Positions 1-62,428 of a stretch of 64,000 nt of DNA are shown here, one piece after another (within the stretch, counting starts at the first letter, position 1; each line of letters begins with the position of its first letter). The notes beneath the pieces were generated by a model. It was not told where the DNA came from and did not search any database. It saw only the letters and a list, made by a program, of their open reading frames with translations. The stretch covers positions 1,300,575 to 1,364,574 of the forward strand of contig CP070837.1 in the NCBI GenBank assembly GCA_020341815.1, written 5' to 3'. Origin of the DNA: Candidatus Omnitrophota bacterium (GTDB lineage: Bacteria > Omnitrophota > Gorgyraeia > JAFGHF01). Both the position numbers and the translations under genes were made by a program.

Positions 1-57
1 GTCTTATACTGGAAGTTTGGTTTAAATAAACCCGGTATATCTACGCAAAAAGTATCT

Positions 58-4264: not shown

Positions 4265-4268
4265 AAAA

Positions 4269-8128: not shown

Positions 8129-8305
8129 GTAAGGCCACGACTTAGTGAATGATAATGAAACTAAGTCGTCTGGCCGAACTTATCCCGATAGCTGCAAGAA
8201 AATTTATTCTAAATTTTCGCAGTGTTTTGCTATCGGGATTAATTCACACTTATCACTTACGTCACTATTGTTCCGTAAGTGATGTGCTCATTAAAAGGTG
8301 GGGGG

Positions 8306-9481
8306 ATGGATAAAAAGATTAAACTCCTTTTGGTTGTTTTGGGGTTGATTTCTCTGTTGGGGGCGGGTCTTTCGGCGTGGATTTATTTTTCCGCCCAGGA
8401 AGAAATTATCAGATACGAGGATAAGTATAGCGAATTAGAAAAGAATAATGCATATCTTCGCCAGGGATTGGATGTTGCCGAGAAGGAAAGCCGCCAGTGG
8501 CGGGAAAAGGCGGAGCTTGTAACTGCCACTCTCAATGAATTGAGCCAGAAGTTTAATCTCCTGCAGCAGCAGTATGTATCTTTGAATAAAGAGAAGGATT
8601 CGCTATTCGATGAAAATAAAAGCCTTCTTGAGCAATTGGAGAAAATGAAAGGATTTTATTCCAAAGTTCAGGAGGAAAGGTTAGAAATAATAGAAAAAGT
8701 AGAAGTAGATGCTTCGGATGAATTCTTATCTTCTCTCTTAAAGGAAAAGGCGGCCCTGCAGGTAGAAATAGAAAAGTTAAGAGGGCAGATTGAGAGCGTA
8801 AAGAAGCAAATACGGCCTTCGCAGAATGAATTTGTCAAACTGGAACTAGAAAAAGGCTCGGTGGAGAAAAAATTAAGCGATATGGAGCGTGCCTCAGGCC
8901 TCTTAAGCAGTGATCTTTTGCAGGAGAGAAAAAAGAGGAGTTCTTTAGAGGAGGAGTTAGTCAGAACCGAAGGCCGGCTTTACCGCATAACCCAGGAAAA
9001 AGATAAGCTCGCCGAGCAACTTACCAAGATGAAGCAGGCCCTGGAGAAGAGGCTTCTTGAGTTAAGCGATACGAAGAAGGTGTTGGAAAGCGCGGTCGAG
9101 GGGGCAAAGAAGGCGATGCAGAAGACAGATGCAGGTATCGGCTCCATTGAATTGTCGCCCATTGTGGTAAAGGCAGAGCCGCCGAAAAAAGAGGCGCAGG
9201 AAATTGCGCCGCCGGCGAAAGAACCGCCGAAAAAAGAGGTGCAAGAGAAGCACTTCACGATAGAAGGCCGCATTATTACGATTAACGACAAACATAAGTT
9301 TGTGGTAATTGATATAGGCCGGGATGCCGGCGTGGAAAAGAAAATGCCTTTTAGTGTCTATCGCCAGGATAAAGAAGTAGGAAAAATAGAAGTAATTGAG
9401 GCGCGCAAAAATATCGCTGCCTGCGATATTAAAGAGATGAAGGTCAAGAATTTCGAAATTAACGACAGCGTACGCAGATGA
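8306..9481 (+). CDS. Membrane-anchored coiled-coil protein with a PEPPKKE repeat and a C-terminal beta-rich domain.
   Basis: ATG at 8306 is preceded by the RBS AAAGGTGGGGGG. The product has an N-terminal TM helix, a long heptad-rich region, a 'PPKKEAQEIAPPAKEPPKKEVQEK' repeat and a C-terminal ~80-aa domain. Confidence 0.4.
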   Translation: MDKKIKLLLVVLGLISLLGAGLSAWIYFSAQEEIIRYEDKYSELEKNNAYLRQGLDVAEKESRQWREKAELVTATLNELSQKFNLLQQQYVSLNKEKDSLFDENKSLLEQLEKMKGFYSKVQEERLEIIEKVEVDASDEFLSSLLKEKAALQVEIEKLRGQIESVKKQIRPSQNEFVKLELEKGSVEKKLSDMERASGLLSSDLLQERKKRSSLEEELVRTEGRLYRITQEKDKLAEQLTKMKQALEKRLLELSDTKKVLESAVEGAKKAMQKTDAGIGSIELSPIVVKAEPPKKEAQEIAPPAKEPPKKEVQEKHFTIEGRIITINDKHKFVVIDIGRDAGVEKKMPFSVYRQDKEVGKIEVIEARKNIAACDIKEMKVKNFEINDSVRR

Positions 9482-9978
9482 GAAAGATAATAATTTATTT
9501 TTTGATTTCTGCAGCTTCTCTTGTCTTGCCGGCGAAAGAGACAGGGGCCGAAGAAGATAAGTACGCGCAGGTTATGCGCGAGATGGCTAAAATCCATTAT
9601 ACTCGCGCAAGGAGTTATTATCGTAATGCAGAATACATAAAGGCAAAGATAGAATTAAGAGAGGTTTTAAGACTCGCCCCCGGCCATCAGGGTGCCCTAT
9701 GGTATCTCGATTGCGTAGAAAGAGCCTTGGATAGTCAGAAAGAGGCCTGCGGAAGCCGCCAGGCGAAATTAGCGAAATTAGAAAGAGAAGACAGGCTCAG
9801 TGAGGTGCAGGTGGCATTAAGCGCAGCCCAAGAGATAGAAGTGGATGAGCGCGACGCCGAAAGGGACGAGATAATAAACGAACTTTACAGGAAAGGCAAG
9901 GACTATTTTTCCCGCGGCCTTTACGCGAAAGCCATTGCCTGTTTTGAAAAGGTAATAAAATTAGCAGGAAAATATTGA
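9478..9978 (+). CDS. Secreted TPR-like protein.
   Basis: Signal peptide plus TPR-like helices. The start overlaps the upstream stop (ATGA), suggesting translational coupling. Confidence 0.35.
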   Translation: MRKIIIYFLISAASLVLPAKETGAEEDKYAQVMREMAKIHYTRARSYYRNAEYIKAKIELREVLRLAPGHQGALWYLDCVERALDSQKEACGSRQAKLAKLEREDRLSEVQVALSAAQEIEVDERDAERDEIINELYRKGKDYFSRGLYAKAIACFEKVIKLAGKY

Positions 9979-9980
9979 GA

Positions 9981-10095
9981 TGAACCCCGCTCTTCCAAAA
10001 CATCACGCCTTGCATAAAAGATATGGGTGAAGGCGGTAGGAGGAAGGATGGGGATAAGGGTTTGGCATTACAAAGAAAGGAAGGGCGGGGTGAAG
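9981..10095 (+). repeat. MITE/REP-like inverted-repeat element, copy A (TIRs TGAACCCCGCTCTTCC ... GGAAGGGCGGGGTGAAG).
   Basis: It starts 2 nt after the upstream stop codon. Its interior is ~90% identical to copy B. The 3' terminus carries the GTG (10090) used as the bioY start. Confidence 0.7.
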
Positions 10096-10680
10096 GCCTT
10101 AGAGTTATCCCGGAGTTTTTTACATAGAGAAATCGCTCTTGATCGGACCGCATCAAGAGTAATAGGACTTTGCTGCTTTACTATCCTGACGGCTTTGGGG
10201 GCTTATGTGCGCATTCCCTTGCCGTTTACGCCGGTGCCTATTACCTTGCAGACCTTTTTTGTTTTGCTTTCCGGGGCAGTGCTGGGGAAGAAATGGGGAG
10301 CCTTGAGCCAGCTAAGCTATCTTTTGCTGGGCATTATGGGTTTGCCGGTCTTTACGGGGACTGGGGCGGGCCTATCTTACCTTTTTGGGCCCACGGGAGG
10401 ATATCTTCTGGGATTTGTTGCGGCCAGCTGGATAGTCGGGTCTGCGCTTGAGCGAAGGTCTGCAAATAATACAAGCCGGATTACGCTGGCGATACTCAGC
10501 GGCTCTTTAGCAGGAATTTATCTTTTCGGGATTTCGGGATTAAGGCTCTTTTTGCAGTGTAATTTCTCAAAGGCAGTGGCCTTGGGATTTTTACCTTTCA
10601 TACCCGGAGATATTATAAAGATTATTAGCGCAGTCTTTATCTATGGCAAAATTCAAAAAAGATGCCTAGAATTATTTTAA
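10090..10680 (+). CDS. bioY: Biotin transporter BioY (ECF S-component).
   Basis: 'TLQTFFVLLSGAVLGKKWGA...GLPVFTG...GPTGGYLLGF' is the BioY signature. The start is proposed at GTG 10090 inside the repeat terminus. The longer ORF-track start at 10027 would translate repeat sequence. Confidence 0.7.
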   Translation: MKALELSRSFLHREIALDRTASRVIGLCCFTILTALGAYVRIPLPFTPVPITLQTFFVLLSGAVLGKKWGALSQLSYLLLGIMGLPVFTGTGAGLSYLFGPTGGYLLGFVAASWIVGSALERRSANNTSRITLAILSGSLAGIYLFGISGLRLFLQCNFSKAVALGFLPFIPGDIIKIISAVFIYGKIQKRCLELF

Positions 10681-11291
10681 TTTCCTTGGCTATTCCGGTG
10701 TTTCTCATAGCCGCTTCCGCCTCAGCCGAAATGAAAGATGCGAGATTCCAGAACCGGCATGGAGTGAGAATCGCAACCAGCGACAGCGACGATAGTTTTT
10801 ATGTGACCCGGGCCGGGGCTCTTGTAGATTACAGTTTTCCCCGCTTGAATAAAATTATAAAAATTCTGCCCTTTTTCGAATACCAGCATAATCTCGATAA
10901 TGGCGCCTGGTGGAGAAAAGAAGCCGGCGTAGAAGTGGGCAGTTCTTTTTTTAATGATTGTTTTTACTGGGGTGCTTCCTTTCAGCATATCTGGCAGCAG
11001 GAGGAGAATTACGCTGTTGAGGCCAACGATGAGACCAGTGAATGGGAATCGCGTTTCGTGATTACCCCTCCCATAAAATGGTGGCTCTTTAAAGATAAAT
11101 TGACCTTGAAGCTTTTTGATGAATATACCTATGATTTCGAAAGAGGCCAGCCCACTATTAATGAAGTGGGCGTGAGTTTCGACTGGCAGATTAGCGAAAA
11201 AGTAAAAATGCCCCTTGGCTGGAGGCATATAGACAGGATTCATGATTTTGATTCTGACTTGATGGAAGTATCCGTATTGTTTTCCTTTTAA
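10662..11291 (+). CDS. Small secreted outer-membrane beta-barrel-like protein (hypothetical).
   Basis: Signal peptide; C-terminus '...SVLFSF' ends in Phe; alternating amphipathic strands. Confidence 0.3.
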   Translation: MPRIILISLAIPVFLIAASASAEMKDARFQNRHGVRIATSDSDDSFYVTRAGALVDYSFPRLNKIIKILPFFEYQHNLDNGAWWRKEAGVEVGSSFFNDCFYWGASFQHIWQQEENYAVEANDETSEWESRFVITPPIKWWLFKDKLTLKLFDEYTYDFERGQPTINEVGVSFDWQISEKVKMPLGWRHIDRIHDFDSDLMEVSVLFSF

Positions 11292-49884: not shown

Positions 49885-51230
49885 GGCACTTATCGATAAT
49901 GCTTCCCGAAATCAGGGAGCTGTTGAAATTGAATAAGAAGGAAGAGCTGAACGAGGCCCTGCGCGAGATGCACCCGGCCGATATAGCTGACGCCCTTTTC
50001 GATCTGCATATAAAAGAGCAGGTTGCCCTGATCAGCCGCATCGATAAGGAGCAGATGATTAAGGTCTTTGATGAGCTGGATGAAGAGGAGCAGTTTGAGC
50101 TTCTGGATAAATTGGAGAAAGAGCTCTCCGCCTATCTTTTGAACGAGATGTCTCCGGATGAAAGAGCCGACCTTTTAAGCAGTCTGCCGGATGAGGTGGT
50201 AAATAAATTTCTCAACCTGATGAGCGAGAACGAACGAAAAGATGTGGAGAAGCTGCTGAGGTATCCTGCCAACTCCGCCGGCAGTATTATGACTACGGAA
50301 TATATCTCGCTCACCCCTGAGCTTATGGTGTCTCAGGCCGCTGAGCTCATCAGGCAGGCCGCCCCCAAAAAAGAGACCATTTATTACACTTATGTTACCG
50401 ACCATGAGCACAGATTGGTGGGATTTGTTTCGCTTAAAGATATATTCATGGCCAGGGAAGATGTGCCTATCAAGAAGCTTATGCACCGCAGGGTATTTAA
50501 GGCCTTTGCCGAGCACGATCAGGAAGAGGTAGCCCAGACGGTGCGCAAATATAATCTGCTGGCCCTTCCGGTAATAGATAAGGATAAGAAGCTCGTGGGC
50601 ATAGTTACCGTCGATGATATCATGGATGTCTTGCGCCAGGAAAACACCGAAGACGTTTACAAGATGGCGGCTATGCTTGCGCCAAAGGAAGAATACTTCA
50701 ATACCGGATTTTTTACTCTCGTCAGGCGCAGGATAGTCTGGCTGGTAATCTTACTGATAGCTGTACAGTTTTCCGGGCAAATCCTCAAAAACTACGGCTT
50801 TGCCCTGGAGGCCGTCGTGGCCCTGGCCTTTTTTATTCCCCTGCTTCTTAATACAGCCGGTAATGCCGGGACCCAGTCCAGCACCACCATTATCCGCGGG
50901 CTGGCCACGGGTGAAATAACAATCAATCAGGTCTTAAAGGTTGTGCGTCGGGAGATAGGCTTAGGATTAGTCCTGGGAGGGGCTTTGGGTGTGCTGGGCG
51001 CAGGAAGGGCGCTGCTTTTGCAAGGCAACCCCTTTGTGAGCCTTGCCGTGGGTCTTGCGCTTGCGGCGACTATTGTGATGGCTACCCTGACCGGGGCTTT
51101 TCTGCCGCTTCTTCTAAAGAAACTCAAGATTGACCCGGCGGTGGCAGCCGGCCCTTTTATTTCTACGGTGGTGGATATAACCGCCTTGATAGTCTATTTT
51201 GAAATAGCCAAAGCATTGCTTCATCTGTGA
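49881..51230 (+). CDS. mgtE: Magnesium transporter MgtE.
   Basis: MgtE_N, CBS pair and five-TM channel domains. The start is ATG 49881 or 49869. Confidence 0.8.
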   Translation: MRHLSIMLPEIRELLKLNKKEELNEALREMHPADIADALFDLHIKEQVALISRIDKEQMIKVFDELDEEEQFELLDKLEKELSAYLLNEMSPDERADLLSSLPDEVVNKFLNLMSENERKDVEKLLRYPANSAGSIMTTEYISLTPELMVSQAAELIRQAAPKKETIYYTYVTDHEHRLVGFVSLKDIFMAREDVPIKKLMHRRVFKAFAEHDQEEVAQTVRKYNLLALPVIDKDKKLVGIVTVDDIMDVLRQENTEDVYKMAAMLAPKEEYFNTGFFTLVRRRIVWLVILLIAVQFSGQILKNYGFALEAVVALAFFIPLLLNTAGNAGTQSSTTIIRGLATGEITINQVLKVVRREIGLGLVLGGALGVLGAGRALLLQGNPFVSLAVGLALAATIVMATLTGAFLPLLLKKLKIDPAVAAGPFISTVVDITALIVYFEIAKALLHL

Positions 51231-51246
51231 TATGGAGGTATGAGGA

Positions 51247-52656
51247 ATGAGCGGGATTTTTGGAGTGGTCTCTGCTGAGGATTGCACCCAGACCCTTTTT
51301 TGCGGCACGGATTACCACTCGCATTTAGGGACCGAATATGCGGGGCTGGCTGTTCTGGGTGAGGACTTTTCCCGTCAGATACACAGCATAGGGCAAAGCC
51401 AGTTTAAATCGAAGTTTTATGAAGATTATAAAAAGATGCGGGGCAATAAAGGTATCGGCGTAATCAGCGCCTTTGATGAGCAGCCGATATATCTGCATTC
51501 GCGCTTTGGGCCCTTTTGCATCGTCACAAACGGTTTAGTTGAAAATGCCCAGGAACTGGTTAATGAGCTGTTAAACAAGGGTATATCTTTCAGTGAGGTA
51601 AGCAGGGATACGGTGAATATGCCCGAGTTAGTTGCCAAGCTAATCAATCAGGGCCAGACTCTGGTCGAGGGCATAGAGAAGATGTTCGAGGCGATTGAGG
51701 GCTCCTGCTCGCTTCTGTTGCTGAATAACGAGGGCATTTATGCGGCCAGGGATAAACTGGGTTACACCCCTCTTGTAGTAGGCAGGCGCGGGAATGATTG
51801 GGCGGTAACTACCGAGACCAGCGCCTTTCCCAATATCGATTTTGAAGTCGTAAAATATCTTCAGCCGGGCGAGATAGTTTTATTAAAGGAGGAAGGCCTG
51901 GCTGATAAAAAACCGGGCTCTGGCCTGGCCCAGGTCTGCACCTTTCTCTGGATATATACAGGATTTCCCGCCTCCAGTTACGAAGGGATAAACGTGGAGG
52001 TGGTCCGTGAGCGCTCGGGGCGCGCCTTAGCCAGGAAGGATAAGGATATAAATATAGATTTGGTCTCGGGCGTGCCTGATTCGGGTACGGGCCATGCCTT
52101 AGGTTATTCTGCTGAGTCAGGTAAGCCCTATCGGCGACCCCTGGTTAAATATACGCCCGGATACGGCCGCAGTTACACTCCGCCCTCGCAGGAGGCGCGC
52201 GATTTAATCGCCCGGATGAAGCTGATTCCGGTCAGGGAAATAATCGAGGGCAACAGGATTGTGGTTTGTGAGGATTCTATCGTCCGCGGCACGCAATTAA
52301 AGAACTTCACCGTTAAAAAATTATGGGAGGCCGCAGCGCGCGAAGTGCACGTGCGCCCGGCGTGTCCGCCTTTGATGTTTCCCTGCAGGTTTAATCTTTC
52401 CACCCGCAGTATCCGCGAGCTGGCTGCCCGCAGGGCTATCCATAGCCTGGAGGGGCATGAATTGGAAGATGTCTCAAAGTATCTCAATCATCACACCCAG
52501 GAATATAAGAGAATGGTGGAATGGATTGCCCGGGACTTAGAGGTGACTACGCTTAGATATCAAACCGTGGATGATATGGTTAAAGCCATAGGCCTGCCTA
52601 AAGAGAGGCTCTGCCTCTATTGCTGGAATGGGCAGTGCCCCCTGAAAGGGATATGA
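51247..52656 (+). CDS. Amidophosphoribosyltransferase-like protein (class II glutamine-amidotransferase/PRTase fold) with Ser in place of the N-terminal Cys.
   Basis: The N-terminus is 'MSGIFGV' where PurF has 'MCGIVGI'. The C-terminus carries a PRPP motif 'VVCEDSIVRGTQL'. Confidence 0.55.
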   Translation: MSGIFGVVSAEDCTQTLFCGTDYHSHLGTEYAGLAVLGEDFSRQIHSIGQSQFKSKFYEDYKKMRGNKGIGVISAFDEQPIYLHSRFGPFCIVTNGLVENAQELVNELLNKGISFSEVSRDTVNMPELVAKLINQGQTLVEGIEKMFEAIEGSCSLLLLNNEGIYAARDKLGYTPLVVGRRGNDWAVTTETSAFPNIDFEVVKYLQPGEIVLLKEEGLADKKPGSGLAQVCTFLWIYTGFPASSYEGINVEVVRERSGRALARKDKDINIDLVSGVPDSGTGHALGYSAESGKPYRRPLVKYTPGYGRSYTPPSQEARDLIARMKLIPVREIIEGNRIVVCEDSIVRGTQLKNFTVKKLWEAAAREVHVRPACPPLMFPCRFNLSTRSIRELAARRAIHSLEGHELEDVSKYLNHHTQEYKRMVEWIARDLEVTTLRYQTVDDMVKAIGLPKERLCLYCWNGQCPLKGI

Positions 52657-53366
52657 TGCTTCTATACGGAAAGAACTCTGTTCTTGAGCGGCTGAAGGTC
52701 AATCCCGCCAGCATAAAAAAGATATGCCTGCAGGATAATTTTTCTTCAGGCTCCATAGAGAAATTAATAAAGGAAAATAAGATTCCTCAGGAACGCCTCT
52801 CTGCCCGGAAATTAGCCAGAATAAAACCCGCCAAAGATTTGCAAGGCATAGTCGCTAGGATAGATAACTTTACATATATCCCCTTTGATGATTTGTTAAA
52901 AGAGGCGCGTCTTTCGCTTATATTTTTGGATAGAGTAAACGACCCCCATAACTTAGGGGTTATTATCCGCACCGCCGCCTGCTTCGGCGGCAATGCCGTG
53001 ATTATCCCTAAATATAAGGCCTGCGAGGTAAATGAGACGGTTCTGCATGTGGCCTCGGGAGGAGAGAATTATATTCCGGTGTCGCTCGTCTCCAATCTTT
53101 CCAATGCCTTAATCAAGGCCAAGAAGCGCGGATACTGGATTGCAGGCGCTGTTGTAAGTAATGAGGCCCAGGATATAAGTAAGGTTTCTCTGCCTTTTCC
53201 CCTGGCGCTTCTTTTGGGCTCAGAGGGTGAGGGTATTCGCAGGGGATTAGAAAAGCGCCTTGATATAAGCCTGAGTATTCCGATGAAGGGGGCGGGGCTT
53301 TCCTTTAACGTGGGTATGGCTTGTGCCATTTTCTGTTATGAGATATCCAGACAAAGACATACTTAA
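52653..53366 (+). CDS. rlmB: TrmH/SpoU-family RNA 2'-O-methyltransferase (RlmB-like).
   Basis: SpoU motifs ('DRVNDPHNLGVIIRTA', 'LLLGSEGEGI'). The ATG overlaps the upstream stop. Confidence 0.7.
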   Translation: MMLLYGKNSVLERLKVNPASIKKICLQDNFSSGSIEKLIKENKIPQERLSARKLARIKPAKDLQGIVARIDNFTYIPFDDLLKEARLSLIFLDRVNDPHNLGVIIRTAACFGGNAVIIPKYKACEVNETVLHVASGGENYIPVSLVSNLSNALIKAKKRGYWIAGAVVSNEAQDISKVSLPFPLALLLGSEGEGIRRGLEKRLDISLSIPMKGAGLSFNVGMACAIFCYEISRQRHT

Positions 53367-53922
53367 TTTTATTGCCGAGGCGGGCTTACTTAAGCGCCTG
53401 CGGCGTTCGGGTTGGTCGGTGATGGGAGTTAAAGACGCAGAGACCGTTGCCGAGCACAGCTTCAGGTGCGCGGTGATAGCCTATCTCCTTGCCCGCATGG
53501 AGGGCGTTTCGCCTTATAAGGTATTGCTGATGGCCCTGTTTAACGATATCCAGGAGGCGCGGATTACCGATTTACACAAGATGGCCCAGCGCTATATAGA
53601 GGCGCATGCAGCAGAGGACAAATCCTTTAACGAGCAAATCAGCTCTTTACCCAAGAATATAAAGAAAGAGTTGAAAGATATGTATAGGGAGTATAAAGCT
53701 CAACAGAGCAAAGAAAGCATTATCGCCAGGGATGCCGATATCCTGGAGTGCCTGATTCAGGCCAAGGAGTATTATGAATACGGCTATCCCGAGGCCACCA
53801 AGTTTATGAAAAAGGCCCCGCGCTTTCTCAAGACAAAAAGCGCCCGAAGCGTCTGGCGGCAGGGGAAAAATATGAGCCTTAACGAGTGGTGGTTTGAGTT
53901 AAGCGATTTTAAGCGCTTGTAG
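53323..53922 (+). CDS. HD-domain phosphohydrolase (YfbR-like 5'-nucleotidase family).
   Basis: HD motif context ('AEHSFR...', 'ITDL'). Confidence 0.5.
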   Translation: MPFSVMRYPDKDILNFIAEAGLLKRLRRSGWSVMGVKDAETVAEHSFRCAVIAYLLARMEGVSPYKVLLMALFNDIQEARITDLHKMAQRYIEAHAAEDKSFNEQISSLPKNIKKELKDMYREYKAQQSKESIIARDADILECLIQAKEYYEYGYPEATKFMKKAPRFLKTKSARSVWRQGKNMSLNEWWFELSDFKRL

Positions 53923-53957
53923 AGAATCATTGCGCTAAAAATTTTCAATAAATAGTC

Positions 53958-54116
53958 TTGCATAAATATGCAAGAGGGTATACAATATGCCCCTGTGGAG
54001 AAGGGCAGGCCTTTTGCCTGTCGCGGGTAGAACCGTGTTAAAACAAATAAAGATCTCAATGTCAGAATGGATCTTTCACCCATTATTGCCAATGGTGAAA
54101 GATCCTTTTGTTTTTA
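53958..54116 (+). promoter_or_regulatory. Sigma70-type promoter with a palindromic -35, followed by a leader carrying mutually exclusive antiterminator and intrinsic-terminator hairpins upstream of kamA.
   Basis: The -35 TTGCAT sits inside the palindrome TTGCATAAATATGCAA, then 17 bp, then the -10 TACAAT. The terminator is GGATCTTTCACC…GGTGAAAGATCC (54069-54105) with a T-run at 54106-54116. The alternative hairpin AAGATC (54050-55) / GATCTT (54070-75) overlaps the terminator's 5' arm. Confidence 0.5.
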
Positions 54117-54151
54117 TGAGGTAAACCTTTCATAAGGAGGGGAAAAGTGCC

Positions 54152-55276
54152 ATGGGCACAGAAGTAAAAGAATTGTTGTTAGAGAGGGATGAACCTCCAG
54201 GTAGTTTGAACTGGAACAGCTGGAGGTGGCAATTACGAAATGCCGTAAGAAATGCAGAGACATTAGAAAAAATAATTCCCTTGAACTCTGAACAAAAGCA
54301 GAGCTTAAGCAAGGTTATTGCCAAATATCCCCTGGCAATAACGCCTTATTATTTATCGCTCATTGATAGAAATAACCCGCAGGATGCCGTGAGGATGCAA
54401 TGCGTGCCTTCAGCTGAGGAAATGAAGCTGTATTTTGAAATGCACGACGACCCTCTCGGCGAGGAAGATGATTCCGTGCTCCCCGGGCTTATTCATCGCT
54501 ATCCCGACAGGGTGCTTTTGGTCCTGACTAATATGTGCCCTGTTTATTGCAGGCACTGCACCCGAAAAAGGCAGTGGTGTAAGGGTAATTGGATCAGCCG
54601 CCCCAAGGAGCTGGAGAATACATATCGCTATATCGAGATGCACACGGAGATTCGGGATGTTATTCTCTCAGGGGGCGACCCGCTTATCCTATCTACGGCG
54701 ATGCTGGAAGGGGTATTAAGCAGGCTCAGGCAAATCAGGCATGTTGAGATTGTCAGGATCGGCACGCGTTGTCCGGTTGTCCTTCCCCAGAGGATAGACG
54801 CAGAGTTGGTTGCCATGCTTAAGAAATACCGACCCCTGTGGGTAAATACGCATTTTAATCACCCCAATGAAATAACGAAGGAATCCGCCAGGGCGGCTGA
54901 TATGATGCTTTGCGCGGGGCTTGCGCTTAATAATCAGAGTGTGCTTCTAAAGGGGATAAATGACAGCGTAGAGATTATGACCAGGCTTTGCCAGAGGCTG
55001 CTTGGGATTGGAGTAAGGCCTTATTATCTTTTCCAGTGCGACCCCGTAAGCGGCACGGCCCATTTCAGGACTTCGGTGGAAAAGGGCATAGAGATTATAA
55101 GGGCCATGCGGGGATTTACCTCAGGCCTGTGCGTGCCTACTTTTGTAGTGGACGGACTCAAAGGTCAGGGAAAGGTGCCTCTTGCGCCCAATTACTTAGT
55201 CTCCAAAGAAGATAACTATATGCTGCTTGAGGGATATGAGGGGAAGCGGTTTAAGTATTACAATCCGGAGGATTAG
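54152..55276 (+). CDS. kamA: L-lysine 2,3-aminomutase (radical SAM, KamA/AblA-like).
   Basis: 'CPVYCRHCTRK' radical-SAM cluster motif and a KamA-like core; 374 aa. Confidence 0.7.
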   Translation: MGTEVKELLLERDEPPGSLNWNSWRWQLRNAVRNAETLEKIIPLNSEQKQSLSKVIAKYPLAITPYYLSLIDRNNPQDAVRMQCVPSAEEMKLYFEMHDDPLGEEDDSVLPGLIHRYPDRVLLVLTNMCPVYCRHCTRKRQWCKGNWISRPKELENTYRYIEMHTEIRDVILSGGDPLILSTAMLEGVLSRLRQIRHVEIVRIGTRCPVVLPQRIDAELVAMLKKYRPLWVNTHFNHPNEITKESARAADMMLCAGLALNNQSVLLKGINDSVEIMTRLCQRLLGIGVRPYYLFQCDPVSGTAHFRTSVEKGIEIIRAMRGFTSGLCVPTFVVDGLKGQGKVPLAPNYLVSKEDNYMLLEGYEGKRFKYYNPED

Positions 55277-56317
55277 GTGAAGATAGGCATAACTTACAAC
55301 CTGAAAGACGACTTATCCCCCGATGCCATCGTTAACGATGAGTTTGCCGAGGAGTTCGATAGCGCCGCAACTATTGACGCCATATGCGGAGTTTTGCAGC
55401 AGGAAGGCTATGACAGCGTAAAGTTGGGCGGGACACTTGATATCGTCGGCAGAATAAATAAAGAAAATATAGATTTCGTATTTAATATCGCAGAAGGCGC
55501 ATGCGGCAGAAACCGCGAATCGCACGTCCCTTCACTTTTAGAGATGTGTGATATGCCTTATTCCGGCTCCGACCCTCTGACGCTGGGGCTTACGCTGGAT
55601 AAGATTATGACCAAGAAGATTGCCTATTATGCGGGCATTCCCACGCCCAATTATAAGGTAATATGGCAATCGGAAGACCTGAAAACAATAGAAAATGTCT
55701 TGAGGTATCCCCTGATAACAAAACCGGCCTGGGAGGGCTCCAGCAAAGGGATATATAATTCATCCAAAGTATCCGATGGGGATAATTTGAAGAAGAACGT
55801 AAAGCTGCTTCGAGAGAAGTATCCGCATCAGCCGATACTGGTTGAGGAATACATCGAGGGCAAGGAAATCACCGTCGGCGTAATAGGCAATAACCCTGCG
55901 CAAATCTTAGGGGTTATGGAGATTGTAAATAAACATTTGCCGGGTGAGGATTTGCTTTATTCGCTTGAGGTGAAGAAAGACTGGAGGAACTTAGTTGATT
56001 ATCTGGTGCCGGCGAATGTAGGTAAATTAGAGGACAGACATATAAGGCATTATGCGCTTTCGGCCTTCCGGGAGTTTGGCTGCCGGGATATCGCAAGAGT
56101 AGATTTTAAGCTTTCCCGAAGCCAAAACAAGATATTTCTGCTGGAGATAAATCCGCTTCCGGGTTTATCGCCCGAATATGCCGACCTTGTGATAATGAGC
56201 CGAAAGGCGGGAATAGAATACAGGGACCTGGTTCTGTCTATTCTGTATCAGGGGTTTTCACGTTATGAATCTTTGGGGAAAATGGTAAAAATTTCAAGGG
56301 TGGGTCTTAAACTATGA
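55277..56317 (+). CDS. D-alanine-D-alanine ligase-family ATP-grasp enzyme.
   Basis: An N-terminal Ddl-like 'FNIAEGACGRNRES…LEMCDMPYSGS' block and a C-terminal ATP-grasp fold. Confidence 0.55.
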   Translation: MKIGITYNLKDDLSPDAIVNDEFAEEFDSAATIDAICGVLQQEGYDSVKLGGTLDIVGRINKENIDFVFNIAEGACGRNRESHVPSLLEMCDMPYSGSDPLTLGLTLDKIMTKKIAYYAGIPTPNYKVIWQSEDLKTIENVLRYPLITKPAWEGSSKGIYNSSKVSDGDNLKKNVKLLREKYPHQPILVEEYIEGKEITVGVIGNNPAQILGVMEIVNKHLPGEDLLYSLEVKKDWRNLVDYLVPANVGKLEDRHIRHYALSAFREFGCRDIARVDFKLSRSQNKIFLLEINPLPGLSPEYADLVIMSRKAGIEYRDLVLSILYQGFSRYESLGKMVKISRVGLKL

Positions 56318-57303
56318 AGCAATATGATTTTGCCTTAGCCTGGAACAGCGGAAGCAAGGAAAAGTTTGTTACGTGGACACGGAAGGAATGCACCGTCAGG
56401 GGGATGAAATTCCATCTGATAACCGAAAAGAACGTGGAAGGGACAATTGAGGACCTCGAGAAGAATAAATTGAAGATAAAGTTTCTTCTGGATAATGAGT
56501 CCGATTACGAGGATAAGAGAAATTTATTTGCCCGGCTCTGTTATGCGGTCAAGGATAACGGGGGTACTGTGGTCTGCGACCCGGACGATGCCCGCCAGGC
56601 GGCAAATAAGGCGATTACGCACTATGATTTGGTGAAGGCGAAGCTTCCCGTTCCCTATACGGTTGTTGTGCGTAACTGGGAGCCGGATGATTTTAAATTG
56701 ACCAAGGATGAGCTGAAGTCATTAGGCGCGCCCTTTATAATAAAACCGGCCTCAGGGTTTGGTCAGCAGGGCGTGCTTAAAAATGCCAACGGCTCTATTA
56801 CAGAGATAGCCCAGGCAAGGCATTTCAGCAGGGGCGATGATTTTCTCCTGCAGGAAAAGGTTAATCCGCTTATCCTGGGGGATAGGCAGGCCTGGTTCAG
56901 GACGTATTTTCTGTTTGGCGAGATTATCCCCTGCTGGTGGGATACCGAAAGCGGCCGCTACGCCCACGTTACCCTGCGCCAGATGTATAATTATAAGCTG
57001 CTTCCGCTTGCCCGGATTATTTCCGAGATAGCACGGATAACCAATATGGATTTCTTCTCATCGGAGATTGCCATTACCGGCAAAGAAAAAAAGAAGCATT
57101 TCATGGCCATAGACTATGTAAACGACCAGCCCGAGCTCTGCGTGCGTTCTCAAAAGGGCGGGGAAGGGCCGGTATCCGAGATAGTGCAGCATATTTCCGA
57201 AAAAATAGTAGAGACGGCCTGGCGCATCTCCAGAGGCGTATATACCGGAATGCACCGTTCGATATGGCTTGCAAAGGCAACGCATGAGGATGAGAGCATC
57301 TAG
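56314..57303 (+). CDS. Second ATP-grasp-family ligase (RimK-like core).
   Basis: 'FIIKPASGFGQQGV' ATP-grasp glycine-rich loop. The start overlaps the upstream stop. Confidence 0.45.
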   Translation: MKQYDFALAWNSGSKEKFVTWTRKECTVRGMKFHLITEKNVEGTIEDLEKNKLKIKFLLDNESDYEDKRNLFARLCYAVKDNGGTVVCDPDDARQAANKAITHYDLVKAKLPVPYTVVVRNWEPDDFKLTKDELKSLGAPFIIKPASGFGQQGVLKNANGSITEIAQARHFSRGDDFLLQEKVNPLILGDRQAWFRTYFLFGEIIPCWWDTESGRYAHVTLRQMYNYKLLPLARIISEIARITNMDFFSSEIAITGKEKKKHFMAIDYVNDQPELCVRSQKGGEGPVSEIVQHISEKIVETAWRISRGVYTGMHRSIWLAKATHEDESI

Positions 57304-57320
57304 GCCCATGAGCAGGAGAG

Positions 57321-57740
57321 ATGAGGTTTCCCAGAAGCACCCGCAAATTCGACGAAATCTTCAAAAAGGCGCATTGCCCCGCTCCCTCAGAGCTTAAGGG
57401 CGAATACTTCGTCGATATGCTCAGTGCCCTTCCCACCTTAAGAGGCTTTTTCCACCGCAAGGTTTTTATCCCCGAAGGAGACGGAGTTTCAGGTTACAAT
57501 CTGCTTTTTGCCGACAAAAAGTGGGGCGCTTTTTTTCTGGAGAAAGGGATTTGTAATGAGCTGGGCTCGATAGAGGCAATGGTAATAAATTACGATAGAG
57601 AAGAAAATTCCTTTCTCACCAATAAAATCAGGGATTATATAAGATGTATCGAGCCGGGAAGGTTATACATCGGCCGCTTCAATTACCTTTTTATGGGAAA
57701 ATTGCGCTTTCTGGGATATTTTAGTTTGAGCAAGGCATAG
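57321..57740 (+). CDS. Hypothetical protein, last gene of the kamA/ATP-grasp cluster.
   Basis: 139-aa ORF with no recognisable motifs. Confidence 0.25.
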
Positions 57741-57754
57741 AAAAGGGGGCCTCT

Positions 57755-58798
57755 ATGTATAAGATAATTTTACTGGGATTGCTTATGGCATTTATAGCCC
57801 AACGAAGTTCTTTTGCCGATGAGAAAAAGGCCACTTTTGCCGGAGGGTGCTTCTGGTGCATGGAGCCGCCTTTTGAAGCCTTAAAAGGCGTAAGCGAAGT
57901 TACCTCAGGCTATATGGGCGGCACCAGGAAAAATCCCACATATGAAGAGGTTTCATCAGGCAAGACAGGGCACAGAGAGGTGGTTCAGGTTACTTATGAT
58001 GCCTCTAAAATAAGCTATACAGAGCTTCTGGATGTTTTTTGGAAGCAGATAGACCCGACTGATGCAAGCGGGCAATTCGCCGATCGCGGCTCACAATACA
58101 AAACCGCCATATTTTACCACGACCAGCAGCAGAGGCGCCTGGCGGAGGAGTCCAAAAGCAAACTCGAAGAGTCGGGAAAGTTTGAAAAACCAATCGTCAC
58201 CGAAATCCTAAAGGCCTCTACATTTTATCCGGCCGAAGAGTATCACCAGGACTATTATAAGAAATGCCCCTTCAAATACGATAGTTATAAAAAGGGCTCC
58301 GGCAGGGATGAGTTCATTAAGGAAAAATGGAGCGGTAAAGCCCCCGGTAATCCTAATGAGTATCGCAAGCCATCCGAGGCAGAGATCAAGGAAAAGCTTA
58401 CGCCTTTGGAATATCAGGTTACCCAGCAATGCGGCACAGAGCCGCCGTTTAACAATAAATACTGGGACAATAAAAAAGAAGGTATTTATGTAGATATTGT
58501 TTCCGGTGAGCCGCTGTTCAGCTCTCTGGATAAATTCGATTCCGGAACCGGCTGGCCCAGCTTTACCAGGCCGCTTGAGGCGGACAATGTCGTGAGGAAA
58601 GAAGACAGAAGGTTCTTCGGTATGCGCACCGAGGTAAGAAGCAAAGACGCCGATTCCCACCTGGGCCATGTATTTGATGACGGGCCCGAACCTACGGGCC
58701 TGCGTTACTGCATAAACTCCGCGGCCTTACGTTTTATACCGAAAGAGGATCTGGAAAAGGAAGGCTACGGGGAATATAAAAAGCTTTTTGAGAAATAG
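57755..58798 (+). CDS. msrAB: Bifunctional peptide methionine sulfoxide reductase MsrA-MsrB with an N-terminal signal/anchor.
   Basis: MsrA 'GGCFWCME' motif, MsrB 'RYCINSAAL' motif and a hydrophobic N-terminus. Confidence 0.8.
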
Positions 58799-58810
58799 CA
58801 GGAGGAAGTT

Positions 58811-60052
58811 ATGTCCGCAAAATTGAAGGTCAGGCAATTCGCTGCCGGCAGCTGCTATTCTTACATTTTGAATTGTCAATCCGAGGCGTTTATTATCGAT
58901 CCGCATATAAGCCTGCCGGAGGAATATATCGGCTATCTCGATAAGCACGGATTAACGCTTAAATATATAGTGGATACGCATACCCATGCGGACCATTTTT
59001 CTCTGGCGGCGATATTGAAGGAAAGATTCAAGGCGCCCGTATTGATGCACGAGAGGGCTATGTCCGAGGTGGCCGATAGACGCCTTAAAGAAGGCGATGA
59101 AATCTCTATCGGCCCAAAGCATTTTAAGATTTTGTATGCGCCCGGGCACACGGATGACACCATAAATATTTACGGAGAAGGCATGATTTTTACCGCCGAT
59201 GTGCTTTTGATAGGCAGCGTGGGGCGCACCGACTTCCAGAACGGCTCGCCGGAATCGATGTTCGATACCCTGGAGAAATTAAGGGCCCTTCCCGATGAGA
59301 CGATAGTATTTCCCGTGCACGACTATAACGGCAGGAAATCCTCTACTATCGGCAGGGAAAAGGCGCGCAACCCCTTTATGCGCGAAAGAAATAAAGAGGC
59401 CTTTGTGCGTAATGCCCGCTCAAAAAAGCTACCCAAACCCTTCAATATCGATAACATCATCAGGGTAAATCAGAAAGGGCAGGCCAGGACTCTGGAGATG
59501 GTTTCTCCCAAAGAAGCTCAAGAGGTTATTTTGCGGGATGAGCAGGTTAAGCTGCTGGATGTGCGTTCTCCTCTGGAGTTTCATGAGGTCCACATCAAGG
59601 ATTCGCTTAATGTGCCCATAGATACCATAGGCCTTAAACTGAAAGACCTGAGTGAGTCCGGAAAGAGTTATATAGTGCTCTGCCGCACCGGAAACCGCTC
59701 ACCCATGGCCGCAGATATGCTATTGCAATCCGGTCTTCATACGGTAAAAGTTATGCAAGGGGGCATGACGCGCTGGCAGAAGGAAAGGCTCCCCGTTATA
59801 AAGGGAGAAGGTGGCGTGTCTCTGGAGCGGCAGGTCAGATTTACTGCAGGCGCTGTAGTGCTTTTTGGCATAATAATGAGCTGGTTTGTAAACAGGGCCT
59901 TTATCTGGATTCCCATAGGCGTCTCCTGCGGGCTTATCTTTTCCGGATTGAGCGACAATTGCCTTCTGAGCGCGTTGTTGATGAGGCTCCCCTACAATAA
60001 AAAATTATATAAGACCAAAACAGGGGGCGGCACCTGCTCCATCAGTCAGTAA
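58811..60052 (+). CDS. Metallo-beta-lactamase-fold (persulfide-dioxygenase-like) - rhodanese - DUF2892 (YgaP-like membrane tail) fusion protein.
   Basis: 'HTHADHF' MBL motif, rhodanese active site 'CRTGNRS' and a C-terminal two-TM tail. Confidence 0.6.
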   Translation: MSAKLKVRQFAAGSCYSYILNCQSEAFIIDPHISLPEEYIGYLDKHGLTLKYIVDTHTHADHFSLAAILKERFKAPVLMHERAMSEVADRRLKEGDEISIGPKHFKILYAPGHTDDTINIYGEGMIFTADVLLIGSVGRTDFQNGSPESMFDTLEKLRALPDETIVFPVHDYNGRKSSTIGREKARNPFMRERNKEAFVRNARSKKLPKPFNIDNIIRVNQKGQARTLEMVSPKEAQEVILRDEQVKLLDVRSPLEFHEVHIKDSLNVPIDTIGLKLKDLSESGKSYIVLCRTGNRSPMAADMLLQSGLHTVKVMQGGMTRWQKERLPVIKGEGGVSLERQVRFTAGAVVLFGIIMSWFVNRAFIWIPIGVSCGLIFSGLSDNCLLSALLMRLPYNKKLYKTKTGGGTCSISQ

Positions 60053-60086
60053 AAAAGTTTTTATTTAACCGGGGAGGGCTGAAGGA

Positions 60087-60716
60087 ATGAAAAAACTATT
60101 GCATATTATAGCTACCTGCCGGGGCAAGGAATCAAGGACCTTAAAGGTAAGCGATGCCTTTATTAAGGCCTTTAAGCTGAAGCATCCGGAGTGTAATATC
60201 GATGAGCTTAACTTGTTTGATGCAAAGCTGCCCGAGCTCACCGTAAAAAAATTGGACGGAAAGTATGTGCTTTTGGGCGGGGGTGAGCTTGCGGGAGAAT
60301 TAAAAGAGGCCTGGAAGGATATAGAGGCCCATATAGAGCGCTTCCTTGCGGCCGATATTTACTTAATCAGCACCCCGATGTGGAATTTCAACATCCCCTA
60401 TATCCTGAAGCATTATATTGATATAATAGTCCAGCCCAAATATCTTTTCCGATACACCCAAAAGGGCCCCGAGGGCCTGGCGAAGAATAAAAAGATGATT
60501 GTTATTACCAGCCGCGGCGGTGATTACAGCGAAAATAGCCCATTTCACGCCTATGACCTCCAGGAGCCTTATCTGCGCACCATATTCGGCTTTACGGGGA
60601 TTACCGATATCACCTTTGTTATTGCCCAGCCCATGGATGCACTTGGCCCTGAGGTAGCCGCTCAAAAGATTAAAGAGGCCGAAGGGCGCGCCGTAAAAGT
60701 AGCTCAAGAGATATGA
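60087..60716 (+). CDS. azoR: FMN-dependent NADH-azoreductase / flavodoxin-like quinone reductase.
   Basis: 'STPMWNFNIPYILKHYIDII' is the AzoR signature. Confidence 0.7.
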   Translation: MKKLLHIIATCRGKESRTLKVSDAFIKAFKLKHPECNIDELNLFDAKLPELTVKKLDGKYVLLGGGELAGELKEAWKDIEAHIERFLAADIYLISTPMWNFNIPYILKHYIDIIVQPKYLFRYTQKGPEGLAKNKKMIVITSRGGDYSENSPFHAYDLQEPYLRTIFGFTGITDITFVIAQPMDALGPEVAAQKIKEAEGRAVKVAQEI

Positions 60717-60728
60717 AGGAGGCGAGTT

Positions 60729-61001
60729 ATGAGCTCTAAAAAAAGCTTCACTGCCGAGGAAGCCAAAAAGATCGGAGAAAAGCTGGGGATAAAGTGGGAT
60801 AAGTTTGATGTGGAGCAATTCAGGCGGGGGATGGATGTGGAATTGGAGCACGGTTTGCATGATGTCTTAACAAATGTTACGGGAGATGACGCCTTAATCA
60901 CAGGTAAGATTGCCCTGGCCCATCTTAATGAGTTTCCCGATTATTATACCCGGCTTGATAAGATGGAAAAGGAAGCCGAGGAGTTCTGGGAAGGAAAATA
61001 A
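60729..61001 (+). CDS. Small hypothetical protein.
   Basis: 90-aa charged protein; no family recognised. Confidence 0.3.
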   Translation: MSSKKSFTAEEAKKIGEKLGIKWDKFDVEQFRRGMDVELEHGLHDVLTNVTGDDALITGKIALAHLNEFPDYYTRLDKMEKEAEEFWEGK

Positions 61002-61018
61002 AGAAAAGGAGCTAAGCC

Positions 61019-61504
61019 ATGACCAGAAAGAAAAAGGGTCAGTTTCCGGCAAAATGGGATCCCTTTATGAATGAGATGGCCTCGTTTAAGAAATCCATTG
61101 ACCAGGCCTTTGACAGTTTCTTCAAGCATCCCTTATTGGCTAAGATGCCTTCGGTATTCAAGGGCGCCTTTGGCGTCTGGAGGCCTGCGATCGATGTCTA
61201 TGAGACCGAAAGAGAAGTGGTGGTAAAGGCAAGCGTGCCCGGTTGCGACAAAAAGGCCATAAAGGTCGATGTAAAGAACAATCTGCTTACCATCACAGGC
61301 CAGAGAAAAGAAGAAAAAGAGATTAAAAAGAAAAACTTCTACCATAAAGAGCAGACTATGGGCGCTTTCCAGAGAAGCATAACCCTGCCCCAGAACATCA
61401 ATCCCGAGAAAGCCAAGGCCACATGCGAAAACGGAGTGCTCAAGATTGTCTTTCCCCGGACCAAGTCCCCCGGGGGAAAGGGAAAAAACATAGAAATCGA
61501 GTAA
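61019..61504 (+). CDS. Hsp20/alpha-crystallin small heat-shock protein.
   Basis: Alpha-crystallin domain ('WRPAIDVYETEREVVVKASVPG…TCENGVLKIVFP'). Confidence 0.8.
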   Translation: MTRKKKGQFPAKWDPFMNEMASFKKSIDQAFDSFFKHPLLAKMPSVFKGAFGVWRPAIDVYETEREVVVKASVPGCDKKAIKVDVKNNLLTITGQRKEEKEIKKKNFYHKEQTMGAFQRSITLPQNINPEKAKATCENGVLKIVFPRTKSPGGKGKNIEIE

Positions 61505-61522
61505 AATTCCAAAGGAGCGCAT

Positions 61523-62428
61523 ATGGGAGAAAAAAGGCCCTTAAATCCGGTTGAGGAATTAAGAAGAGATAAATTAGAGAAGCTAAAGAAGTGTTTTTCA
61601 GAGCTTGAAGGCTATAAGCGGAATAAGCTTACTTTACAGTATCCTGTCTTTTTCGTTCCCGGCTGGACATGCGAAGATTGCGCCGCATGGAAAAAGCCTT
61701 ATGAAAAAATTCCCAAAAAATACAAGGAATATTATAAACCCGCAAAATACTGGATAGATGAGATTATCGAGAATAAAGAGCAGGCTCATTTTATCGAATT
61801 TACGGATCAGGAAAGCAAGGATTCTCCGAGTTTCATGAAATTGGGAGAATATCTTAAGAAAAAATTAATAGCTATAACTCAAGAAAGGCCTATTAACCTG
61901 GTTGGACACAGTATGGGCGGTTTGGACATAAGGTCTGCTATTTCGGATGTTAAAGAGCCGGCTTTAAACACAAGGAATGTTATAACGGTAGGCACTCCCA
62001 ATAACGGAACTCTTGAGGCCGGACTGCTTAACTGGAAGTTTGTTCAAGATATGGTAAAAAAGTTTAAAAAAATGAAGGATTATCACATAATTCAGGGATG
62101 CAATCTCTATAGAGGAAGCAATCCCATAAGAGAGATTAACGAGCCTAAAGAGCGTCTTAATTTGCTGGAAAAAATTGACAAATTCTATGTTTTTATGGGT
62201 TTAAGAGACAGCACGGTCAAAAGCAGCCCCAAGCTGAAAAAAGACGGCATTTCGGAAGATTTATACGAAGAAAAGGTAAAAATAATTCAGACAGCCAGCG
62301 CCGAACATTCGGGCAAGGACGGAATAACCCAGGATCCGAGACTTTTTCTTCCTATAATTAAGATTTTGTGCGGCATCGAGCTAAAGGACGATTTCAATCA
62401 CGGGTATATTTACAGAAAAGAGACTTAA
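61523..62428 (+). CDS. Alpha/beta-hydrolase lipase/esterase-like protein.
   Basis: Nucleophile elbow 'GHSMGG' with an 'FFVPGW' N-terminal block. Confidence 0.45.
   Translation: MGEKRPLNPVEELRRDKLEKLKKCFSELEGYKRNKLTLQYPVFFVPGWTCEDCAAWKKPYEKIPKKYKEYYKPAKYWIDEIIENKEQAHFIEFTDQESKDSPSFMKLGEYLKKKLIAITQERPINLVGHSMGGLDIRSAISDVKEPALNTRNVITVGTPNNGTLEAGLLNWKFVQDMVKKFKKMKDYHIIQGCNLYRGSNPIREINEPKERLNLLEKIDKFYVFMGLRDSTVKSSPKLKKDGISEDLYEEKVKIIQTASAEHSGKDGITQDPRLFLPIIKILCGIELKDDFNHGYIYRKET

Follow-up and report, generated by a model that had tools for sequence, protein, structure and literature searches.

A cluster of three genes at positions 54152-57303 on the plus strand of a 64-kb stretch of genomic DNA from a Candidatus Omnitrophota bacterium (64,000 nt of contig CP070837.1, hereafter the window) was analysed. 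These genes, which code for an aminomutase of the KamA family and two ATP-grasp ligases, stand an about even chance of being a biosynthetic module whose product is a small beta-lysine-containing di- or tripeptide. This interpretation builds on the identities of the three genes, a lysine-type active site in the aminomutase, substrate pockets in the first ligase that differ from those of D-alanine-D-alanine ligases (Ddl), the ATP-grasp fold of the second ligase, and the conservation of the trio across phyla. The ORF (open reading frame) listing confirmed the four abutting plus-strand ORFs (54152-57740) that the original prediction, made from the sequence of the window, had combined into one operon:

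54152-55276, plus strand: radical-SAM/PLP (S-adenosylmethionine/pyridoxal 5'-phosphate) aminomutase of the KamA family, 374 amino acids (aa)
55277-56317, plus strand: Ddl-like ATP-grasp ligase, 346 aa, starting with GTG directly 3' of the kamA stop codon
56314-57303, plus strand: divergent ATP-grasp ligase, here called AG2, 329 aa, with a 4-nt overlap with the Ddl-like gene
57321-57740, plus strand: ORF of 139 aa coding for a calycin/lipocalin-like barrel, which adjoins AG2 here

The abutting stop and start codons and the 4-nt overlap couple the first three genes tightly, which supports their interpretation as a module.

The aminomutase

The aminomutase contains the Pfam domains Radical_SAM and LAM_C and passed the NCBIfam model of the KamA subfamily (TIGR00238) with 341 bits at a cutoff of 199. 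The scores for all equivalog models remained below the respective cutoffs, with AblA as the best (476 bits, cutoff 525), followed by the glutamate-type (441, cutoff 650), arginine-type (405, cutoff 600), and EpmB (257, cutoff 369) models. The shortfall for AblA is consistent with the absence of about 45 C-terminal model positions. Compared to the lysine 2,3-aminomutase of Clostridium subterminale (PDB 2A5H), with which it shares 53% identity over 354 residues, the protein is a short form that lacks the C-terminal extension of about 40 aa. Its CxxxCxxC iron-sulfur motif (CPVYCRHC, residues 129-136) is conserved in all 21 cluster sequences. The PLP-binding lysine is kept (GQGK341, aligned with GGGK337 of 2A5H), and so are the two lysine-binding aspartates (FQCD297 and FVVD334, aligned with YQCD293 and FVVD330). 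In the clostridial enzyme Asp293 and Asp330 bind the epsilon-ammonium group of lysine; Ruzicka and Frey are said to have found these positions occupied by Lys and Asn in glutamate 2,3-aminomutase. Equivalents of D293, D330, and K337 are present in 20 of 20 cluster-linked KamA homologues, which are likewise short forms (about 357-391 aa) without the clostridial extension; two outliers in length are explained by truncation at the end of a contig and by a start called too far upstream, respectively. Because the lysine-type residues are kept and the protein resembles 2A5H, the conversion of L-lysine to beta-lysine was taken as its likely reaction, in agreement with the KamA/AblA type proposed originally.

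The best-known bacterial use of beta-lysine is the modification of elongation factor P (EF-P), and the aminomutase is short like EpmB. A system for EF-P beta-lysylation, in which an EpmB-type aminomutase cooperates with an ATP-grasp ligase replacing EpmA, is however disfavoured and appears extremely improbable, given the much lower score for EpmB than for AblA, the widespread occurrence of the ligases without an aminomutase, and the failure of tblastn searches to find efp in the window or in 83 related loci (epmA was not searched).

The two ATP-grasp ligases

Both downstream genes code for ATP-grasp ligases, as had been claimed. In the Ddl-like protein the Pfam domain Dala_Dala_lig_C was recognised with 126 bits, and the best PDB match was to a solved Ddl (E 6.5e-29). 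Every NCBIfam Ddl cutoff was missed (best score 173.7, cutoff 243), all equivalog models being far below their cutoffs, and tblastn with DdlB of E. coli revealed 27.7% identity over 256 residues. Current pipelines sometimes label members of this subfamily as "D-alanine--D-alanine ligase". When 30 members from the clusters were aligned to DdlB of E. coli (the reference being identical to 2DLN/1IOV), the ATP, Mg, and transition-state residues proved to be kept in the window protein and the subfamily (K97, K144, S150, E180, K215, R255, D257, E270, N272, and G276 in DdlB numbering). Positions of the D-Ala subsites are replaced in nearly all members (V18 by D, H63 by E, E68 by R, and L282 by D) or are more variable (K or R for Y216; A, S, or G at S281), and there is an additional insertion of one residue. 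From the literature on DdlB/2DLN we take H63, Y216 (part of the E15-S150-Y216 triad), S281, and L282 to be D-Ala subsite residues. Since the residues for ATP and Mg are kept and charged residues occupy the D-Ala pockets, the protein is, as judged from the alignment, a catalytically competent ATP-grasp enzyme of the Ddl group that belongs to a distinct subfamily and not to the true D-Ala:D-Ala ligases. Charged substrates such as lysine or beta-lysine would fit the newly charged positions. The possibility that residues of the Ddl-like protein track the presence of KamA was also considered, but was rejected because the two forms of the variable motif (PGLSP[EQ]Y.. and PGL[HN]P[VI]S..) are distributed according to lineage and not to KamA.

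A second, more remote subfamily of Ddl-like proteins, which shares 27% identity with the window protein and also has a paralogue in locus L060, pairs with AG2 in the absence of KamA in loci L002 and L003 (positions 1-8990). There, the Ddl-like gene is located directly 3' of an island of SMC/AAA_15, N6/N4 methyltransferase, and ResIII helicase genes that is similar to a defence locus, so that the AG2 locus of L002 adjoins a methyltransferase/helicase island.

No Pfam domain was found in AG2, whose family has no Pfam model. Sequence models gave weak N-terminal matches (27.9 bits for rimK_fam, cutoff 143.4, and 26.7 bits for LysX, cutoff 275.6), and a profile search of PDB sequences found nothing significant (best E 0.4). 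The fold is of the RimK/LysX/GshB structural type, an ATP-grasp with a pre-ATP-grasp N-domain, and the best structural matches were LysX/ArgX and RimK, with BacD (3vmm) and the L-amino-acid ligase BL00235 (3vot) as structural neighbours. Identity to the clade of RimK, LysX, and glutathione synthetase amounts to about 12%. With 727 members at 90% clustering, mostly from Omnitrophota, and 365 representatives at 50% identity among 1.84 billion proteins, this is a small, isolated, and divergent ATP-grasp family. A hypothetical protein from a metagenome-assembled genome (MAG) of Candidatus Omnitrophota matches AG2 of the window with 100% identity.

AG2-type domains were also found fused to Peptidase_M3, GNAT, and lantibiotic-dehydratase N-terminal (LanB-N) domains (P0336, P0338, and P0392), and to a class-Ic Glx-tRNA synthetase (GlxRS) in a single ORF of 955 aa (L050, 2927-5794); the genes of the latter pair are adjacent in L045 (approximately 8001-10780). 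The fusions to an M3 oligopeptidase, GNAT, LanB-N, and GlxRS argue for amino-acid or peptide substrates.

Conservation of the cluster and companion genes

The original prediction had proposed a survey of gene neighbourhoods for recurrence of the kamA-ATP-grasp pair. One genome per species was scanned for AG2, resulting in 79 loci in which ORFs were called and clustered and neighbourhoods mapped, and neighbours were counted in the 61 loci with at least 2.4 kb of upstream and at least 1 kb of downstream sequence:

S66 LD-carboxypeptidase-like gene beside AG2: 31 of 61 loci, the commonest partner
Ddl-like gene beside AG2: 23 of 61 loci
KamA beside AG2: 16 of 61 loci, always together with a Ddl-like gene
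KamA, Ddl-like gene, AG2, and S66 all present: 14 of 61 loci

Among the 18 loci with AG2 orthologues of at least 55% identity, a Ddl-like gene is present in 14 and KamA in 10. The order KamA-Ddl-AG2-S66 or KamA-Ddl-S66-AG2 was found in Omnitrophota, Margulisiibacteriota, and unclassified MAGs, the same gene order occurs on independent metagenomic contigs, and the cluster is kept at high identity within the Omnitrophota. This shows a nested architecture with AG2, accompanied or not by S66, as the core, the Ddl-like gene as a frequent addition, and KamA feeding the Ddl-like step. The kamA-ATP-grasp association claimed originally thus recurs, but not as the core of the cluster, since KamA occurs in about one quarter of the AG2 loci; the S66 part of the core is in turn missing from the window.

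A non-overlapping set for the window (positions 1-64000) comprises 61 ORFs with 80 aa or more, of which about 50 are on the plus strand, and intergenic gaps are very short, and with mostly one-strand, tightly packed genes adjacency alone is weak evidence for co-function in this genome. That unrelated genes lie side by side by chance in such a dense single-strand genome is indeed true for the 139-aa gene. For the three enzymes the survey refutes this explanation, which keeps next to no probability: the same gene order of the trio was encountered in two or more phyla and in many species-level genomes, and KamA was never found without a Ddl-like gene. Neither outcome that the original prediction had named as its refutation was therefore obtained, be it an EpmB-type enzyme with efp nearby or ordinary ddl and rimK genes that co-localise by chance.

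The original prediction had also counted the 139-aa ORF as a member of the unit. Its product, which has no Pfam match, is a conserved protein that forms an eight-stranded calycin/lipocalin-like beta-barrel. The ORF is missing from every related cluster and its homologues are located in unrelated gene contexts, and it was therefore rejected as a pathway member, leaving the kamA-Ddl-like-AG2 trio as the part conserved across phyla. One homologue (L086, 4724-6923) separates purD from purE, with stop and start codons that overlap, and this placement may indicate a function that has nothing to do with beta-lysine.

Two of the four recurrent families, the Ddl-like ligases and the LdcA-like S66 proteins, are classically peptidoglycan enzymes, and conservation at high identity within the Omnitrophota would be expected for a housekeeping trait; moreover, no second ddl was found in the 64-kb window. 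The module could accordingly serve the cell envelope by building or remodelling a beta-lysine-containing stem peptide or cross-bridge of the peptidoglycan, with the Ddl-like enzyme forming an alternative terminal dipeptide, AG2 attaching a side-chain residue, and S66 acting as LD-carboxypeptidase. The ATP-grasp D-aspartate ligase Asl, which adds a side-chain residue and has a partner racemase, is a model for AG2 in this scheme. However, the D-Ala-binding residues of the Ddl-like protein are replaced, its scores are below all Ddl cutoffs, the S66 protein reached 135 bits with the muramoyltetrapeptide carboxypeptidase (LdcA) model at a cutoff of 378, mur, fem, and pbp genes were not recurrent among the neighbours, and beta-lysine is not known as a constituent of peptidoglycan. 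An envelope function is thus unlikely compared to the synthesis of a free beta-lysine peptide.

Further genes accompany the cluster in related genomes. In about 16 Omnitrophota loci (among them L010, 5058-5801, and L096, 2907-3693) the region 5' of kamA contains a gene for an ArsR/SmtB regulator (HTH_5; NF033788, 71 bits) and one for a signal-peptide protein of about 120 aa with a very acidic mature part, instead of which a structured leader of 229 nt is found here. Two unannotated small ORFs were observed between the acidic secreted protein and kamA (L005, 5489-5812; L006, 5541-5828; L008, 1204-1512; L014, 5473-5813), neither of which is present in the window. The first codes for a basic peptide of about 45 aa (..GLRKYIRRQK..ELL.RFY) and additionally occurs alone in L013, L016, and L017. 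The second, found in four loci, codes for a Cys-rich peptide of about 45-55 aa (MCCDxCPxYxxC..LKxxCCxxCxDYxxC, followed by an acidic tail) that, with ArsR/SmtB upstream, resembles a metallothionein-like protein or a LysW-like Zn-finger carrier; the idea of a LysW-like carrier was rejected because of this restriction to four loci.

In some clusters a conserved protein of about 305-322 aa is encoded between AG2 and S66 (L096, 7008-7976; L005, 8993-9940) or 5' of the Ddl-like gene (L018, 2044-2958; L025). It had no Pfam or PDB match, and by eye a putative small-molecule-kinase-like pattern (D-P-H-I-W-N ... D-F-D) was noted. Just 3' of AG2/S66, genes for a TreT-like GT4 glycosyltransferase, a GH65 phosphorylase/hydrolase, and a MarC membrane protein recur in Omnitrophota (L010, 11254-14786; L096, 9013-10877; L015, L018, L019, and L078), which may represent a sugar-solute island of the trehalose or kojibiose type. 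None of the S66, ArsR, acidic secreted protein, GT4, and GH65 genes was detected by tblastn in the 64-kb window, which therefore contains a reduced three-gene version of the cluster.

AG2 might also act on a macromolecule. The best structural matches of AG2, LysX/ArgX and RimK, act on protein C-termini, its pairing with S66 is the commonest one, its fusions include LanB-N/PEARL-like and M3 peptidase domains, and the small Cys-rich ORFs with acidic tails lie 5' of kamA in four loci. A writer and eraser system is therefore conceivable, in which a RimK-like AG2 elongates a protein or ribosomal peptide at its C-terminus and S66 removes the added residues, while the Ddl-like enzyme and KamA extend or cap the tail with beta-lysine. 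We regard it as improbable, since the search across loci found no conserved small partner protein (substrate or carrier such as S6 or LysW) near AG2, the Cys-rich ORF is confined to its four loci and absent from the window like the acidic secreted protein, and Ddl-type enzymes normally use free amino acids.

Pairs of Ddl-like and other ATP-grasp ligases are known to build bacilysin, rhizocticin, and tabtoxin. A "Trojan-horse" peptide antibiotic could likewise be assembled by enzymes of the L-amino-acid ligase type, for which RhiM/RhiC is a precedent of a ligase pair (PMC13579937), with S66, whose family includes MccF (PMC4010828), as the self-immunity hydrolase and the MarC-family membrane protein recurring nearby. 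Yet genes for the formation of a warhead or for export are not present, S66 is absent from the window, and the conservation looks vertical, with high identity over many Omnitrophota, in contrast to the sporadic occurrence of secondary-metabolite clusters. An antibiotic is thus a very unlikely product of the module.

Proposed pathway and role

In the preferred pathway, KamA would convert L-lysine into beta-lysine by radical-SAM/PLP chemistry. The Ddl-like ligase would activate a carboxylate as acyl phosphate and join beta-lysine with a second amino acid, and AG2 would add a further residue or couple the product to another carboxylate. In relatives the S66 (LdcA/MccF-like) serine carboxypeptidase encoded beside AG2 would trim or recycle the product. 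In this scheme we infer which substrates the two ligases accept and in which order the steps take place, as well as the product and its role. Since genes for TreT-like and GH65 enzymes recur beside the cluster in Omnitrophota, the leading guess is that the product serves as a stress or compatible solute in the cytoplasm. A more far-reaching proposal must be regarded as tentative and, taken as a whole, rather doubtful: KamA, the Ddl-like ligase, and AG2, with or without S66, would make and turn over a new class of carnosine- or glutathione-like cytoplasmic beta-lysine peptides that serve as stress or compatible solute or as nitrogen reserve in Omnitrophota and Margulisiibacteriota, AG2 being a new ATP-grasp family and S66 its dedicated hydrolase.

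Several observations weigh against a beta-lysine peptide. KamA is absent beside 7 of the 23 Ddl-like genes, and AG2 and S66 also occur without the Ddl-like gene and KamA, so that beta-lysine is not obligatory for the family. In most Omnitrophota the cluster is accompanied by genes for S66, ArsR, and the acidic protein, of which the window is devoid. Neither ligase has a characterised homologue; their roles, like the substrate preferences read from the pockets, are predicted from sequence. Finally, some hosts originate from non-saline aquifers, which weakens the osmolyte idea.

There are precedents for the ATP-grasp ligation of beta- or rearranged amino acids, such as carnosine synthase and PylC, a Ddl-like ligase which acts after the radical-SAM lysine mutase PylB, and further ones in glutathione synthetase and the GNAT/ATP-grasp synthase of N-acetylglutaminylglutamine amide (NAGGN). 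The known fates of beta-lysine are acetylation to an osmolyte, EF-P modification, fermentation, and incorporation into antibiotics by non-ribosomal peptide synthetases. If the proposed pathway holds true, the route via two ATP-grasp ligases would be a new fate for beta-lysine and would provide a first function for the uncharacterised AG2 family and for a divergent Ddl subfamily. The module occurs in phyla without cultured physiology, where a defined product would be a rare biochemical handle, and with its three compact genes it lends itself to direct tests in a heterologous host. The original prediction did not recognise the combination as a described pathway, and our full-text literature search agrees with this, as it found no paper that joins a 2,3-aminomutase with ATP-grasp, Ddl, S66, or RimK-type genes, a passing mention in the amidoligase survey of Iyer/Aravind 2009 being possible. 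The observations made in that prediction are partly confirmed and its interpretation is partly supported; the products it put forward (a beta-lysyl peptide, oligo-beta-lysine, or a solute) were pure inference. Among the database and structure searches it had suggested, those for the ligases yielded a Pfam match for the Ddl-like protein and the ATP-grasp fold for AG2, and that for the 139-aa ORF led to the unrelated barrel.

Leader region and genomic surroundings

The gene of an HD-domain hydrolase ends at position 53922, which leaves a gap of 229 nt before kamA that contains the following elements:

53956-53975, no strand assigned: perfect 9+2+9 palindrome TCTTGCATAAATATGCAAGA, 20 nt, read from the sequence, overlapping the -35-like hexamer
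53958-53986, plus strand: promoter-like TTGCAT-17 nt-TACAAT, matching 8 of 12 consensus positions by sequence inspection
54069-54115, plus strand: terminator-like element, consisting of a 12-bp stem GGAUCUUUCACC/GGUGAAAGAUCC with an inner extension (54069-54105) and then UUUUGUUUUU (54106-54115)
54134-54142, plus strand: Shine-Dalgarno-like AAGGAGGGG, found by sequence inspection, ending 9 nt 5' of the kamA ATG

The leader as a whole (53985-54155; -59.1 kcal/mol, z -3.84) is more structured than shuffled sequence, and the terminator-like hairpin reaches -19.5 kcal/mol (z -5.99). As the terminator-like element ends 37 nt 5' of the kamA start, which leaves no space for a downstream promoter, transcription must read through the hairpin, and putative conditional read-through is plausible. 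The strong promoter and attenuator described in the original prediction were not borne out: the promoter-like site is below the threshold of the consensus scan and was thus not listed by it, and the sole candidate antiterminator was no better than shuffles. A known riboswitch or leader family was rejected, since Rfam gave no match at E<=1 over 50000-62000, and searches with the leader against all related loci (blastn and nhmmer) found no conserved leader RNA. The palindrome, which as RNA has a folding energy of -9.1 kcal/mol (z -3.95), may function as an operator or form a weak hairpin 3' of the HD-domain gene; it is present as a single copy in the window and was not found in 95 related loci.

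Base composition is even over the region, and the Pfam scan identified a SpoU methylase, the HD hydrolase, MsrAB, and a metallo-beta-lactamase (MBL)-rhodanese protein as neighbours. Downstream of the 139-aa ORF more co-directional genes follow with gaps of 12-34 nt (periplasmic-type MsrAB, the MBL-rhodanese fusion, and others), so the operon end drawn at 57740 in the original prediction is arbitrary. The genes at 57755-60052 code for a bifunctional MsrA/MsrB with a signal-peptide-like N-terminus and for a membrane fusion protein of MBL-fold, rhodanese, and YgaP-like parts. Fusions of the latter kind are known from BigR-regulated sulfide-detoxification operons; no ArsR or BigR gene adjoins the genes described here. 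An anti-phage search with PADLOC gave a sub-threshold hit to KamA-pVip (E 0.0081, 13.6 bits) as its sole match, and a function in anti-phage defence was rejected because this hit reflects similarity of the radical-SAM domain.

Comparison with known systems

The closest parallel to the proposed pathway is AblA/AblB, which produces the compatible solute N-epsilon-acetyl-beta-lysine in methanogens and some bacteria. Both begin with a lysine 2,3-aminomutase of the KamA/AblA type, AblA being the best equivalog for the window protein, and continue with an enzyme that conjugates beta-lysine. The module differs in having two ATP-grasp ligases in place of the GNAT acetyltransferase, and the aminomutase, which is devoid of the C-terminal extension, does not reach the AblA cutoff. 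A GNAT of the ablB type was found neither among the Pfam-scanned neighbours in the window nor recurring in related clusters. Compared to PylB/PylC, the module contains two ligases and no PylD, and PylC was not among the sequence matches; PylB is neither a KamA-family nor a PLP enzyme.

With DdlB and VanA the Ddl-like protein shares the Dala_Dala_lig_C domain and the conserved ATP, Mg, and transition-state residues, but it is distinguished by low pairwise similarity, sub-cutoff scores, the exchange of H63, Y216, S281, and L282 for E, K/R, A/S/G, and D, respectively, and an operon shared with an aminomutase. AG2 is separated from the clade of RimK, LysX, and glutathione synthetase by its low identity and lack of a significant sequence-profile match, and forms a small family of its own. 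RimK works with the RimB protease in Pseudomonas, whereas AG2 has S66 as partner peptidase instead of a retropepsin and is not accompanied by a conserved LysW-like carrier. Carnosine synthase (ATPGD1), BacD, RizA/RizB, and TabS are similar as ATP-grasp enzymes that form di- or oligopeptides from free amino acids, with a beta-amino acid as donor in carnosine, and BacD and BL00235 are also structural neighbours of AG2. They differ from the ligases described here in their gene context, and no sequence relationship beyond the superfamily is detectable. Each component of the module belongs to a known superfamily, and the chemistry has analogues.

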